Source: a virus | Taxonomy: Duplodnaviria; Heunggongvirae; Uroviricota; Caudoviricetes | Length of the DNA stretch: 4,313 bases | Strand: one strand, 5' to 3' | IMG/VR virus record: IMGVR_UViG_2671180637_000018 | Shown here: positions 1 to 4,313 of the stretch, piece after piece | Layout: each line of letters begins with the position of its first letter | Numbering within the stretch: position 1 is the stretch's first letter | The notes under the pieces: generated by a model | Databases searched by the model: none | The model's input: only the letters and a program-made list of their open reading frames with translations | What the model was told of the DNA's origin: nothing | Made by a program: the position numbers and the translations under genes

Positions 1-968
1 CCCAGCGTCACGTTATTCGTGTCATACCAGCTGGAGAACTTCTCCAGAATATTAATAAGCGGATTATCCTTCTGCCCCTGCGGCGCACCGGCGATATATT
101 CAAAGGCCTTTTCGGTATCAAGGTCACTTTCAATCGTCGCTGCATACATGGCTTTCACAATGGCCGACTGAAGCTGTGTTGCCTGCAGGGAATCCAGCAT
201 CTTCAGCCGTTCCATGACGCTGTAAAACTGATTAGCCCCACGGGTCTGCCCGTCCTCCACCGGCTCGAAAATATGCAGCATGGCCGGACGCCCGGTGGGT
301 AGTTCACGCGGGATCCGTTCCCATCGTCCACTCCCGGAGAACGGAAAATCATCCTCACAGATATGGTACGCAACGGCACGGCCATATCGATCGACCTCCA
401 CCCCGGCCCGCAGAAAACGGTTCCCCATACCGTGTCCTGGCGTGTCCACCCGTTTCGGACTCACGGCTTTAAAACGCGTACGGAATAACTGCGTGGTTTC
501 CGTATCCCAGACCGGCTGCACAAAGATTTCGCCGTTAAACGCATGAACGCCCACACCTTCACGGATAAATTCCGTGAACGTGCGTTTTCCTTCCACGTCG
601 ATCTCGCCAGACATCCCTTCGGCGTATTCCGACCAGGCCGCCTCCACCTCATCGACAAAGCTTTTTGCTGCGGTCTCCCGCATCCCCAGCCAGCGCCAGT
701 TCGGACGGTAGCTGATAAGAAACATATGCCCGACAATGTGATCCTTATGCAGGGCCACCGCATTGGCCGCTATTCCGTTATTGCGCACCAGATCATCTGC
801 CCGGGCATTCCCCAGACGCAACGCGGGCAGCAGGGCCGCATCGGCACTCTGCGCCGGTGGCAACCACTCCGCCATTTGCCCGCCAAATCCTGCACCGCCC
901 CCGTTGTAGCTGAGACTCTCACGAAGCGGAACGCCGTTCACATCAATCAGGACAGGCGTTCGTTTCAT
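1..968 (-). CDS. B: portal protein (lambda gpB-like), partial: N-terminal ~322 codons, C-terminal part beyond window start
   Basis: Minus-strand frame open from ATG at 968..966 to position 1 (not in the ORF track because it runs off the edge). Manual translation MKRTPVLIDVNGVPLRESLSYNGGGAGFGGQ...NARADDLVRNNG...HIFEPVEDGQTRGANQFYSVMERLKMLDSLQATQLQSAIVKAMYAATIESDLDT matches lambda gpB blocks as recalled. GAGG Shine-Dalgarno just upstream; ATG overlaps the gpW stop (ATGA), as at the lambda W/B junction. Confidence 0.85.
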   Translation of the reverse strand, partial: MKRTPVLIDVNGVPLRESLSYNGGGAGFGGQMAEWLPPAQSADAALLPALRLGNARADDLVRNNGIAANAVALHKDHIVGHMFLISYRPNWRWLGMRETAAKSFVDEVEAAWSEYAEGMSGEIDVEGKRTFTEFIREGVGVHAFNGEIFVQPVWDTETTQLFRTRFKAVSPKRVDTPGHGMGNRFLRAGVEVDRYGRAVAYHICEDDFPFSGSGRWERIPRELPTGRPAMLHIFEPVEDGQTRGANQFYSVMERLKMLDSLQATQLQSAIVKAMYAATIESDLDTEKAFEYIAGAPQGQKDNPLINILEKFSSWYDTNNVTL

Positions 969-1171
969 AACCTCACTCCCAGCGGACGACGGCGACGCCG
1001 GGTTGTCCCCAGTACCGACTCCGCATCATTGATCGCCCGGTTAAGCTCATCCAGAGAAGCCGCCGTATATTCAATTCTGCGACCATCTTTCTGGACAGAC
1101 ACCACCCGTTTACCGGTTAATAAATCAAGGCGCGCCTGACGCAGCGCCTGCAGTTCAGCGACTGTAACCAT
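965..1171 (-). CDS. W: head completion / head-tail joining protein (lambda gpW-like)
   Basis: 68-aa [71 protein letters not shown]; same length as lambda gpW with the conserved TGKRV.VQKDGRR core. Strong GGAGGA Shine-Dalgarno 4 nt upstream of the ATG; sits between terminase and portal as in lambda. Confidence 0.85.
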   Translation of the reverse strand: MVTVAELQALRQARLDLLTGKRVVSVQKDGRRIEYTAASLDELNRAINDAESVLGTTRRRRRPLGVRL

Positions 1172-3083
1172 TCACTCCTCCGGACAGCTTCGCTGCCAGT
1201 TCTTTCAGGGTTGGCCGGGTCGTCTCTTCTTCCCGGGATTTTGCCAGTACAGCCAGATCAAGCTGCCAGCGTTGCACGGACACACGTAATGCCGCGTAGG
1301 CATACACCAGGCAGTCCAGCGCTTCGTTACGCCGCTTTTTGTTATCCCACAGCAGACGCATCTTTCCTTTTTCCCACTTCTCCACCAGCTCTTCCGCCAC
1401 CAGTTGCTGCGCCTCTGTCTGCGAAAAAATCTCCGGATCATCAGGAAAACGGATGGCATACGACGTGGCTTCATCCGCAGGCGAGGGATCGGCTTTCATA
1501 CGGGCATAGAGAATTTCTTTTGCGGTGTCCGTTCCCACTTCACACAGATACACGCCCCGCTGATTGCGGGTTTTTGGCATGGTGATCACCGGCTTGCCAT
1601 AGACAGATGCGCCTTTTACCGGCAGCACCCGGAAAACACCGTGTTTTTTTGATCTCTGATAAACAATTTCACCATCGATCCCCCCGGTGTCCCAGCAGAC
1701 ACGGGAAATAGTCATTTCGGTGCCATCCGCATGGCGGTATTTTTTGTTGATCGCCGCATCCACACGTAACAGCGTCTCTTCCTCATCAGGACGCCCCATA
1801 ATGATGATTTTATCCACCAGAAAGGCTTCCTCTCCCGGAGCCCATCCCCAGACATACATCTCAAAACGGTTTCGCTGCGAGTCAATGCCCGCCGTCAGAT
1901 AAACCACCCGGGCAGGCACCGCCGCCGTGTAACGCACCACCTTATCCATCAGTACCTGGTGATCGAGTTTTTCGCCCACGGCCTCTTCCCAGGTCTCGCC
2001 CAGCGTGGTGTTCACAAAGGTTTTCAGGCCGTTGGGATCTTTCAGTGCATCCAGCCAGTCATAGACAATCTGTACCCAGGTGGTGAACGGACTGTACGCC
2101 GTCCAGATATGGAAAGTGATGGAGCGCGGCGGCGGAATTTCATTACCCGCAGCGCTGAAAAACGTCAGGCCGTCACGGGTCCACATGCCCGTGTTTTCAC
2201 AGATCCACCGCCCGTTGTTCTGGTCCAGTTCAGACTGATGGATCACGCAGCCATGATGTTCACAGAGGTAGAAAACGCTTTCGGGACTGTCCTTCTCCCA
2301 TTTAAGCCCAAAAGGCGTGGACTCATCGCCAAATTTCAGATACTGCGCCTCCCCACAGTGCGGGCAGGGCACATAAAAACGCATGAAATGCGCCGACTCG
2401 TTGGCCGCTTTTTCGATCTGGCAGGAGCCTTTGATTTTAGGAGTCGAGCCGCGAATGGATTTGGGCCATACAGAGCCCTCAATACGTTTATCCCCCAGCA
2501 GGGTTGGCGAACCCTCTTTTTCAACATCCGGTTCGAACGAGGAAAGCTCGTCATAACAGACCACATCCACGGATTTTTCACGGTAGTTTTTTGCTGCCGC
2601 TCCCCCCAGACACCAGAAACCCACACCGGAGGAAAAACGCTTCAGGGTGAGCGTATTATCGCGGTGTTTTCTTCCGAACCATGGAGCCAGCTCCAGCAAC
2701 GCAGGAACCTCCCTTATCGTTGGCTCAACATGAGATTTCATAAAATCTTCAGCAGCTGAGTCCGTGGGCTGAAAAAGAAGGCTGTTGCGTGATTTATGCT
2801 CAATAAAATAAGCCTCCACTCCCAGCAACATCTTTGTATAACCAACACGGGCAGATTTAATCAGGTTAACAGTGCGAATCAAATCGTTGCCCATACAGTT
2901 CATGATGCCAACCTGAAACGGCAGTGTTTCCCACCGCCCCGGGGTATAAGACGACTCTTTAGGAAGGTAATAATGTTTATTGGCCCACTGAACTGTCGTC
3001 AGTGGAACAGGAATAATGAGAGATAAAAGCCCTGTTGCTATCGCACCGGCTGCATTAGCTGCCTTCTGCGCGTCTGAAATCAT
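1155..3083 (-). CDS. A: terminase large subunit (lambda gpA-like)
   Basis: 656-aa track ORF (1155..3125) collinear with lambda gpA over its full length: [103 protein letters not shown]. Start placed at the second in-frame ATG (3083..3081, MISDAQK...), which aligns with the lambda gpA N-terminus, has a GGTGGA-like SD upstream and gives the lambda-like 29-nt overlap with the Nu1 3' end; the ATG at 3125 has no SD. Confidence 0.9.
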
Positions 3084-3603
3084 CGATCCACCCGCCCACG
3101 TTTTCACCGGCCTTAGCTGAAACATTGGAGGCTTTCGCGATTTCAGTTTTCACCACATCAAGGTGTGATGGTGAAATGTCCGGATATTTACGCTGTAATG
3201 TCAACGGCACACGCACAAGTATCCCCGAAATCTCCTGTGCCACACGTTGCAGAATGAAGGTAAACAGTTCAGTTTCCAGCACTACTCCGTCTTCACGGGC
3301 ATTTTTCAGTTCCTGCGCATCTGCCTGCGCTTTTGTGAGCCGGTAGCGTTCATAGTCAATGGTGCCGGGTTGTAAATCTGACTCCGCTGCCGCACGCAAA
3401 TCGTCCAGTTCTTTGCGGAGCTTTTCGTTTTCGATATCAGTTTCCCTCTGCGCATACCACTGAATTGCCATGGCAGTATCAAATACAGATTCAATGCCCT
3501 TACTACCTTTGGAGGCGCAAGGGAGTCCCTGAGACTGCCAGCGTTCAATCGTCCGCGGGTCCACGTTGAAAATTTCGGCAAGCCTCTTTTTATTAACCTT
3601 CAT
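3055..3603 (-). CDS. Nu1: terminase small subunit (lambda gpNu1-like), DNA-recognition subunit
   Basis: 182-aa [31 protein letters not shown]...[29 protein letters not shown] matches lambda Nu1 (MEVNKKQLADIF...RTIQNWQEQGMP...[28 protein letters not shown]) as recalled. Lies immediately downstream of the cos site and overlaps the gpA start, as in lambda. Confidence 0.9.
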
Positions 3604-3630
3604 GAAAACAACCCATTATCAAATACAAGG

Positions 3631-3642
3631 CCCGACATGAAA
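3631..3642 (-). promoter_or_regulatory. R1-like Nu1 binding site (cccgacatgaaa; minus-strand core CATGTCGG)
   Basis: Forms a perfect 11-bp inverted repeat with 3670..3680 (ccgacatgaaa / tttcatgtcgg); closest repeat to the Nu1 start (about 29 bp), the position of lambda R1. Confidence 0.6.
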
Positions 3643-3669
3643 ACGCCAGAAAAAGGCATTTTCGGACAC

Positions 3670-3680
3670 TTTCATGTCGG
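3670..3680 (+). promoter_or_regulatory. R2-like Nu1 binding site, inverted relative to R1 and R3 (tttcatgtcgg)
   Basis: Inverted partner of 3632..3642; orientation opposite to the other two copies, as for lambda R2. Confidence 0.6.
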
Positions 3681-3689
3681 ACCTTTACG

Positions 3690-3726
3690 GATGCAATATT
3701 AAAAAAAACAAAAAGTTATATTCGAG
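3690..3726. promoter_or_regulatory. A/T-tract region, candidate IHF (I1-like) bending site between R2 and R3
   Basis: gatgcaatattaaaaaaaacaaaaagttatattcg; positional equivalent of lambda I1 (AACTTAATGTTTTTATTTAAAATA) and similar on the minus strand (ATATAACTTTTTGTTTTTTTTAATATTGC). No exact IHF consensus verified. Confidence 0.4.
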
Positions 3727-3731
3727 AAGTA

Positions 3732-3739
3732 CCGACACG
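3732..3739 (-). promoter_or_regulatory. R3-like Nu1 binding site (ccgacacg; minus-strand CGTGTCGG)
   Basis: Third copy of the core with one mismatch, same orientation as R1, at the position corresponding to lambda R3. Confidence 0.45.
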
Positions 3740-3779
3740 ATTTTCCCTGAAAAATTTTCATAAATAGTGAAAAACCGCG

Positions 3780-3791
3780 AGGTCGCCGCCC
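3780..3791 (-). other. cosN: 12-bp cohesive-end site (minus strand 5'-GGGCGGCGACCT-3')
   Basis: Plus strand aggtcgccgccc at 3780..3791 is the exact reverse complement of the lambda cohesive end, with lambda-like flanks on both sides. Confidence 0.85.
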
Positions 3792-3835
3792 CGTAACGGT
3801 CTGGATCACCGGAAAGGACCCGCCAACGACTTTCG
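3792..3835 (-). other. cosQ-containing segment (right-end side of cos)
   Basis: Plus strand cgtaacggtctggatcaccggaaaggacccg closely resembles the reverse complement of the lambda right end (GGGTCCTTTCCGGTGATCCGACAGGTTACG, from memory). Exact cosQ bounds not determinable here. Confidence 0.55.
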
Positions 3836-3849
3836 CGTGCAGGCATTAA

Positions 3850-4003
3850 AAATTTTGCAGTTCCATGCCTAGTTGAAACCTCGATTTCTATAACATCCAA
3901 TTTTGTAAATTTAGATATAGCTCAACTTTTCCCAATGTTTTCAAGTGTATAAAAACAATTGGCGTTACGCCATAACACTATACTTAGGATAAGTAAAGAT
4001 TTT
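3850..4003 (+). promoter_or_regulatory. AT-rich leader likely carrying the promoter/operator for the plus-strand accessory genes
   Basis: Visibly AT-rich non-coding stretch upstream of a strong RBS. Several weak sigma70-like hexamers (TTGAAA 3873..3878, TTGTAA 3903..3908, TATAAA 3948..3953, TATACT 3979..3984), none with a convincing -35/-10 pairing at 16-18 bp, so the promoter is not pinpointed. Confidence 0.25.
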
Positions 4004-4009
4004 AAGGAG
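4004..4009 (+). promoter_or_regulatory. Shine-Dalgarno (AAGGAG) for ORF 4015..4266
   Basis: aaggag followed by a 5-nt spacer and ATG at 4015. Confidence 0.55.
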
Positions 4010-4014
4010 TTTTA

Positions 4015-4266
4015 ATGAGTCAACATCAATATTATCCACAGCTGAAATGGAAGCCTGCTGAATATGAATCTCTGATGCTTTTAGATCAAACTACGCTCTC
4101 TGGTTTTACTCCGATCATTACCATTCCAGACATAGACTGGGATTATGAAAACGAATGCTACAAGAAGAGTTTGAGTTCTTACTTATCTGACTTCGGTATT
4201 AACCTTGCGGCATCCTGGAAAGCCAATCTGATCTTACCCAGCAATAGTGGACACGCGGCTAAGTGA
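4015..4266 (+). CDS. hypothetical small protein (83 aa), first gene of AT-rich accessory cassette; family not recognised
   Basis: ORF MSQHQYYPQLKWKPAEYESLMLLDQTTLSGFTPIITIPDIDWDYENECYKK... with a strong SD at optimal spacing. AT-rich codon usage unlike the phage structural genes; plus strand, opposite to the late operon. Ends at TGA 4264..4266; the next ATG (4294) is in the same frame. Confidence 0.55.
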   Translation: MSQHQYYPQLKWKPAEYESLMLLDQTTLSGFTPIITIPDIDWDYENECYKKSLSSYLSDFGINLAASWKANLILPSNSGHAAK

Positions 4267-4281
4267 GTAAACTCTCAGTCA

Positions 4282-4287
4282 GAGGTG
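4282..4287 (+). promoter_or_regulatory. Shine-Dalgarno (GAGGTG) for downstream gene
   Basis: gaggtg 6 nt upstream of ATG at 4294. Confidence 0.4.
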
Positions 4288-4293
4288 ACTCAC

Positions 4294-4313
4294 ATGACAA
4301 AAACAGTATCAAC
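4294..4313 (+). CDS. hypothetical protein, 5' end only (MTKTVS...), continues beyond window
   Basis: ATG with a good SD 27 nt after the stop of the upstream ORF, same strand and same frame; only 6 codons visible. Confidence 0.35.

Follow-up and report, generated by a model that had tools for sequence, protein, structure and literature searches.

Gene content and cos subsites

The window analysed here is a 4,313-base stretch of DNA that corresponds in full to contig CYEI01000065.1, a draft contig of assembly GCA_001285545.2. Positions 1-3829 carry a phage-21-type head and packaging module in reversed orientation, comprising portal, W, terL, terS, cosB, cosN and cosQ, and the remaining bases comprise AT-rich cassette DNA, the 5' part of a beta family gene and the left end of an IS3. 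Coordinates of the cos subsites were transferred from the phage 21 records, taking the window position as the M81255 locus position + 2799, or as 3792 minus the OL657228 position. All features are collected in Table 1.

Table 1. Predicted features of the window, in order of position
Feature	Position	Strand	Comment
Portal gene, partial	1-968	-	
gpW-type gene	965-1171	-	
terL, large terminase gene	1155-3083	-	
terS (phage 21 gene 1 / Nu1 homologue)	3055-3603	-	M81255 and OL657228 annotation; PF07471 Phage_Nu1
cosB and flanking IHF sites	3606-3762	-	transferred from M81255 and OL657228
IHF site I0	3606-3620	-	phage 21 annotation
cosB R1	3627-3642	-	phage 21 annotation
cosB R2	3670-3685	-	phage 21 annotation
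IHF site I1	3706-3720	-	phage 21 annotation
cosB R3	3727-3742	-	phage 21 annotation
IHF site I2	3748-3762	-	phage 21 annotation
cosN core	3775-3797		contains the 12-nt cohesive end, 3780-3791
Virion chromosome-end junction	3791/3792		phage 21 base 1 = window 3791
Variable cosN-cosQ spacer	3798-3809		GGTCT..AC in the window; CTGTT..GA in phage 21; CTGTC..AC in lambda
Older 'R4' annotation	3811-3822		M81255; overlaps cosQ
cosQ, packaging-termination signal	3815-3821	-	AGGACCC in the window, GGGTCCT on the phage strand; OL657228 42902-42908
Homology breakpoint	3829/3830		last base common with phage 21 and other lambdoid cos, then cassette DNA
Cassette intergenic leader	3830-4014	+	AT-rich (32% GC); lacks the TGATAATnATTATCA palindrome
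beta family gene, 5' 71 codons, truncated	4015-4228	+	PF14350; 355 aa when intact
IS3 left end, inside the beta gene	4229-4313	+	orfA start codon at 4294; contig end

Read on the opposite strand, the 12-nt cohesive end of the window, with the predicted nicks on either side of 3780-3791, gives phage 21 bases 1-12. The cosN flanks are the same in the window, phage 21 and lambda, and the cosQ sequence is the same in the window and lambda; the 7-bp cosQ is highly conserved (PMC4669245). By sequence, the window has the marks of a lambda-like cos, namely a cosN cohesive end, a 7-bp cosQ and an R3-I1-R2-R1 cosB beside a matching terS.

The original prediction had placed a sharp mosaic and compositional boundary at 3792-3860, immediately after cosQ, where lambda-like sequence was said to give way to AT-rich DNA. 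With the subsites assigned as above, this interval would comprise the right-end half of the predicted cos and the first 31 bases of cargo, and cosQ sits inside the interval and not in front of it. The label lambda-like holds in that the cos is lambdoid, but the packaging module is of phage 21 type and not that of lambda itself.

A 71-aa ORF on the minus strand (window 3685-3900) crosses cosB, cosN and cosQ, and a hypothetical protein is annotated at the equivalent position in some phage records (PV340572). As it crosses the chromosome ends, this ORF can almost certainly be discounted as a gene.

Homology to phage 21 and position of the break

The window was 100% identical to the phage 21 cos segment and left end over 3400-3791 (X02501, OL657228). 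A total of 91 differences from phage 21 were counted over window 1-3829. There were zero mismatches to M81255 and OL657228 from ~3201 to 3797, and 8 mismatches within 3798-3829 (3798-3801, 3808-3809 and 3823-3824). Past 3829, identity to the right end of phage 21 was at random level, and blastn gave no alignment between the last 3.4 kb of phage 21 and the cassette DNA of an intact relative.

A 589-base query containing cos and the AT-rich DNA matched 1,201 of 5,426 complete E. coli genomes. The cassette was carried by ~125 of the 1,201 genomes with a matching cos, the rest differing from the window from 3822-3830 on. Of the 1,202 matching E. coli records, a sample taken at even spacing had alignments that ended at window 3821-3829, and for the more distant cos types in the same sample they ended at 3799. 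Pairwise alignment with relatives, which had been proposed as the check on the boundary, located the homology breakpoint at 3822-3829 (8 of 8 fetched comparators), and the left edge of the novel DNA was at 3829/3830 in 6 of 6 class-R2 loci. The claim that lambda-like sequence ends soon after cosQ was correct as to the break, but the break is 8 bp past cosQ and not tens of bp beyond it.

Base composition

The DNA past the break is AT-rich, as had been stated, with 32.4% GC over 3830-4014 and 36.3% over 3830-4228, compared with 54.3% in the head genes. The cassette has 40% GC, against 55% in the head genes and 50% in the lysis genes. Segmentation of window 1-4228 by Jensen-Shannon divergence gave a best single split at ~3565, where terS has its 5' end (n × JSD 41.8; highest value in shuffles 17.5), and within 3604-4228 no split exceeded those of shuffled sequences. 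A compositional change point at 3830 found no support in these results. cosB (3604-3761) has 36% GC, and cosN-cosQ (3780-3839) forms a 60-bp island of 63-67% GC with AT-rich DNA on both sides; the GC drop after cosQ is the right shoulder of this island. Of the sharp compositional boundary claimed right after cosQ, a local GC step was confirmed, but the main shift in composition is at ~3565-3603, at the start of terS.

The beta/sce7726 cassette and its interruption by IS3

Intact relatives of the locus have the gene order terS, cos, beta, sce7726-family gene, Rz, lysozyme and holin. In these relatives the cassette is 2.0-2.2 kb long and fills the interval from cosQ to Rz. CP062910, in which the cassette is intact, showed no difference from the window between ~2560 and 4228, and the beta fragment of the window was 98-100% identical to the intact gene of CP062910 and other genomes. 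Intact beta encodes 355 aa on the plus strand, and its partner, a sce7726-family gene of 206 aa, is convergent with it and overlaps it; in the intact relative L002 the two genes occupy 6616-8245. A full-length match of beta to Pfam PF14350 (Beta_protein) was obtained at 3.7e-56, and beta also matched the PADLOC PD-Lambda-2_C (3e-32) and 'beta' models. The partner matched NCBIfam sce7726_fam NF033832 (1.4e-54) and, in PADLOC, the 'cll' model (4e-31). In the literature searched, sce7726 was found in genome announcements only, and no papers were found on PF14350.

At the distal edge of the cassette, homology to other prophages resumed at the Rz stop or ~220 bases downstream (L002 8441-8658), and a hairpin is present downstream of Rz at L002 8597-8624. 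A promoter scan found no convincing plus-strand sigma-70 consensus upstream of beta. On the minus strand, just upstream of the beta start, the GC hairpin TGGCGTAACGCCA is followed by a T-rich run (3960-3972). This hairpin faces the direction of late transcription and is terminator-like by consensus only.

The beta/sce7726 pair was found beside cos in about 2% of complete E. coli genomes; no phage record of the collection carried the beta/sce7726 cassette. The AT-rich DNA past 3830 is internal prophage cargo and not host chromosome, because the Rz and lysis genes of the same prophage come next in complete genomes.

In the window itself, the sequence leaves the intact beta gene at 4228/4229 and continues into IS3. 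Window 4226-4313 was 100% identical to annotated IS3, with matches in >4,000 E. coli genomes. The truncated beta ORF occurs on three public contigs, all of which end at IS3, and the IS3-beta junction was found in 0 of 5,426 complete E. coli genomes. The cassette is dead in the source strain, because IS3 cuts beta after codon 71. The resulting beta/IS3 fusion ORF is 83 aa long (4015-4266).

Classes of cos loci and the seam at cosN

For comparison across phages, 120 IMG/VR loci with a cosN-cosQ core were fetched, 116 of which were usable. Right-flank classes were defined by k-mer clustering of the 260 bases starting 40 bases past cosQ. Clustering was used because the flanks share no homology right of 3830, which made a MAFFT conservation profile uninformative there. 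The 116 loci fell into nine unrelated right-flank classes.

CP195498 (L008), which carries the same cassette, had no differences from the window from position 3775 to the right and ~70% identity to the left. This would imply that prophages of the L008 type have a different packaging specificity tied to the same right end. Over window 2560-3774, the cosB, terS and terL 5' end of L008 were only ~70-75% identical to the 21 type. The tract 3775-3797 is the sole one perfectly common to the window, phage 21 and L008, and 3751-3797 was nearly invariant across 106 distinct cos sequences. Among the 116 loci, the 21-type cosB class occurred with 5 right-flank classes and the beta cassette with 3 cosB classes. 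The spacer right of cosN carried 1.00 bits on cargo class compared with 0.68 bits on cosB class, and the 35 bases left of cosN carried 0.63 bits on cargo class compared with 2.15 bits on cosB class. Linkage across cosN was lowered, not abolished. From these patterns cosN appears to be a seam between left-arm and right-arm ancestry, separate from the break at 3829/3830.

In lambda packaging the left chromosome end derives from the cos at which terminase starts and the right end from the cos at which it stops. Starting at one cos would require a matching cosB; stopping at the next cos met would require only cosQ, cosN and I2, whatever the type of its cosB. Following an exchange between two lambdoid genomes, a packaged chromosome could have a left end (cosB/terS) and a right end (cosQ and cargo) of different ancestry, and circularisation would then fuse the two ancestries exactly at the cohesive ends. 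We infer that packaging between different cos sites is the mechanism behind the seam.

The change of closest relative at cosN could also stem from ordinary homologous crossing-over, either inside the 23-bp conserved core or between I2 and cosN, for which the near-invariant tract 3751-3797 offers a short stretch of homology. The minimum homology length for RecA- or Red-dependent exchange is near the length of this tract. A crossover in so short a tract would be expected to be rare, whereas exchange elsewhere followed by packaging would yield the same hybrid cos freely, and we regard core crossovers as an improbable source of the seam. A core crossover and packaging between cos sites would both produce the same sequence pattern; the formation of a hybrid cos through packaging is supported by dilysogen experiments (PMC4669245).

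Inside terL, window 2217-2322 had 19 mismatches in ~105 bp to both phage 21 and CP062910. Its flanks had 0-5 differences per 100 bp, and L006 and L008 carry most of the window bases in the patch. The segment looks like a small recombination patch.

Cargo exchange between Rz and cosQ

Different cargo was found beside the 21-type terminase and cos in L005, L006, L007 and L065, and L083 combined an alternative cargo with a different left class. In phage 21 and APEC O18 the interval is filled by a hypothetical gene, a TonB-family gene and iss/bor, and in O104:H4 by three hypothetical genes; ylcI, ybcW, ybcV and bor form a further filling beside 21-type terS and cos. Other flank classes carry Rha/KilA-N-type genes, or a bor gene ~430 bases from cosQ. 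The replaceable cosQ-Rz segment ranges in size from 0.4 to 3 kb. In 7 of the 9 flank classes the novel DNA begins farther from cosQ than it does in the window class.

The Rz-to-cos 'bor region' is a classic moron or accessory locus of mosaic lambdoid phages (HK97/HK022-type mosaicism). The locus described here has the same place, between the lysis cassette and cos, and the same kind of AT-rich cargo, with bor/iss among its alternative fillings, and the cos-proximal gene, here beta, runs counter to late transcription, like bor. It differs in its filling, which is beta/sce7726 and not of the bor, TonB-like or ylcI type.

No empty-site relative was found among the loci compared. No direct or inverted repeats were found at L002 6431 and ~8441-8658, and no transposase, integrase or other recombinase gene is annotated in the ~2 kb cassette. 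Since neither an empty site nor terminal repeats were found, the cassette is best described as an allele of the replaceable Rz-cosQ interval and not as a simple insertion. The suggestion that an accessory cassette had been inserted at the boundary is borne out as to the presence of a cassette, but it is the whole Rz-cosQ interval that is replaced.

Another reading has the cassette as a transposon-like or integrase-driven mobile element with defined ends that targets the sequence just past cosQ; we consider it very unlikely. The left edge at 3829/3830 is highly reproducible, as such targeting would predict, and the elements of the P4 hotspot are also cos-adjacent, in either orientation (PMC9122126). 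However, terminal repeats and a transposase or integrase are lacking, relatives show other DNA in place of an empty site, and the palindrome that most classes (including phage 21) have past cosQ is missing here, which indicates substitution. Transposition and site-specific insertion were rejected, there being neither terminal repeats nor a recombinase.

That position 3830 is the end of the prophage, with the AT-rich DNA belonging to the host chromosome or a neighbouring island, is scarcely tenable. The contig stops 480 bp later in IS3, and the window alone would be compatible with a prophage end, but complete genomes continue from this junction into beta, sce7726, Rz, lysozyme and holin, all belonging to that prophage, and the Rz and lysis genes beyond the cassette refute this reading. 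Lambdoid prophages are circularly permuted with respect to the virion, so their cos is internal.

There is next to no chance that the boundary is an artefact, either of chimeric assembly at a repeat or of gradual divergence in fast-evolving non-coding DNA near cos, since, although the window comes from a draft assembly, is short and runs out in a multicopy IS, the same junction recurs at 98.7-100% identity among the closed E. coli genomes listed, the DNA past 3830 encodes a conserved family unrelated to the genes of phage 21 at that place, and identity falls from 100% to unalignable within 40 bp.

Replacement of the Rz-cosQ interval accounts for the break at 3829/3830, which is an ordinary, well-understood mosaic joint of lambdoid phages, and a routine one. 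That packaging module and foreign DNA meet here in a recombination joint, as had been proposed, was upheld by the presence of the cassette in only ~125 of 1,201 genomes, by the 9 right-flank classes of the 116 loci and by the Rz and lysis genes beyond. Cargo is exchanged at a hotspot, the Rz-cosQ interval, whose borders are under functional constraint. Novel DNA may enter the interval by illegitimate recombination, and the cargo would then be shuffled between phages through the conserved flanks, the lysis genes on one side and cos on the other. Selection on cosQ would fix the nearest point at which novel DNA can start; cargo cannot replace cosQ, because cosQ is needed for termination and is invariant. 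Both this original route of acquisition and a defence role for the cassette are what we infer. Taken as a whole, 3792-3860 is very probably the right half of a phage-21-like (Jouyvirus-type) cos followed by the start of the cargo, with a seam at cosN and a replacement break at 3829/3830.

A palindrome beyond cosQ

In 106 of the 116 loci, which make up 7 of the 9 right-flank classes, the conserved block extends beyond cosQ and takes in a 15-bp palindrome, TGATAATnATTATCA, 5-8 bp past cosQ. Individual copies matched TGATAATnATTATCA at 12-14 of 14 positions, and farther out the classes have unrelated DNA; a match of at least 12/14 has a chance of 0.05% in random AT-rich sequence. The palindrome was found in phage 21 (L001), in L007 and at the lambda right end (L010), the phage 21 copy being a 12/14 variant. 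It is absent from window 3830-3870, and the window class and one other class are without it. After cosQ the window keeps only GCCAACGA, where phage 21 has GAAAACGA. Compared with the cos of lambda and phage 21, the window is identical in the cohesive end, the cosN flanks and cosQ, and its cosB and terS are those of phage 21. It differs in the spacer haplotype GGTCT/AC, in 2 of the 8 bp past cosQ and in the missing palindrome.

TGATAATnATTATCA matches the 7-1-7 Fur-box unit reportedly described by Baichoo and Helmann. In the literature searched, a role of the palindrome in cos is undocumented, its sequence turning up in two contexts only, oligonucleotides of lambda ends and Fur boxes from other bacteria, and nothing was found there on ylcI with Fur.

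Comparison with P4 gop-beta-cII and PD-lambda-2

The models matched by the two proteins have their origin in satellite P4, where the order of the locus (L011 247-2540) is cos, gop, beta (355 aa) and a convergent cII that is annotated as sce7726 family. Amino-acid identity between the cassette and P4 was 22% for beta (E 4e-07) and 27% for cII (E 1e-18). The P4 locus has 36% GC, compared with 53% in the rest of P4. P4 gop gave no tblastn match in L002, where only 185 bp separate cosQ from beta. Kinship of the cassette with P4 at the DNA level was rejected, as blastn with a word size of 7 found nothing. Like gop-beta-cII, the cassette is cos-adjacent and AT-rich and pairs a 355-aa PF14350 beta with a convergent sce7726-family (cII) gene; unlike it, the cassette has no gop and no DNA similarity and belongs to a lambdoid prophage. 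The locus is at the right chromosome end here and at the left end in P4. On these protein matches, beta and the sce7726-family gene of the cassette are distant homologues of P4 beta and cII.

In P4, gop is presumably the toxin of the system, a toxic membrane protein. A defence function of the cassette is not assured, because gop is absent. Rules of the PADLOC gop_beta_cll type would probably miss the gop-less lambdoid pair. The P4 gop-beta-cII system protects against lambda and P1 and occupies a cos-adjacent hotspot (Rousset et al. 2022, PMC9122126).

According to Vassallo et al. (2022, PMC9519451), defence by PD-lambda-2 needs its beta-like third component, PD-lambda-2C, which they describe as related to a P4 antitoxin. 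The cassette resembles PD-lambda-2 in that its beta matches the PADLOC PD-Lambda-2_C models. PD-lambda-2 further comprises a HigB-like A and an Xre-peptidase B, whereas the cassette has neither and its partner gene is of the sce7726 family; no HigB- or Xre-like gene was found between cos and Rz, where there are only two genes.

Significance

The joint itself is routine, and its recognition helps to annotate the contig correctly as a cos site and not as a prophage end. The comparisons show to the base how far DNA around a lambda-type cos can be exchanged, with the seam at 3775-3797 and novelty from cosQ+8.

A defence or toxin-antitoxin-like role of the cassette is plausible from the family matches, and the beta/sce7726 pair may reasonably be viewed as a candidate two-gene module with such a role. 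We put forward only tentatively, as a combination more doubtful than probable, that TGATAATnATTATCA is an unrecognised functional element and, separately, that the gop-less beta/sce7726 pair is an autonomous anti-phage module. On the first of these readings the break at 3829/3830 would cut into an extension of cos that most lambda-like phages conserve. If the palindrome is functional, it would be a candidate site for a host factor or Fur, acting on packaging termination or controlling the first cos-proximal cargo gene, and the beta-cassette lineage would be a natural knockout showing when the palindrome is dispensable. If the beta/sce7726 pair is anti-phage, the cos-adjacent position would be a convergent defence hotspot of P4 satellites and lambdoid phages.
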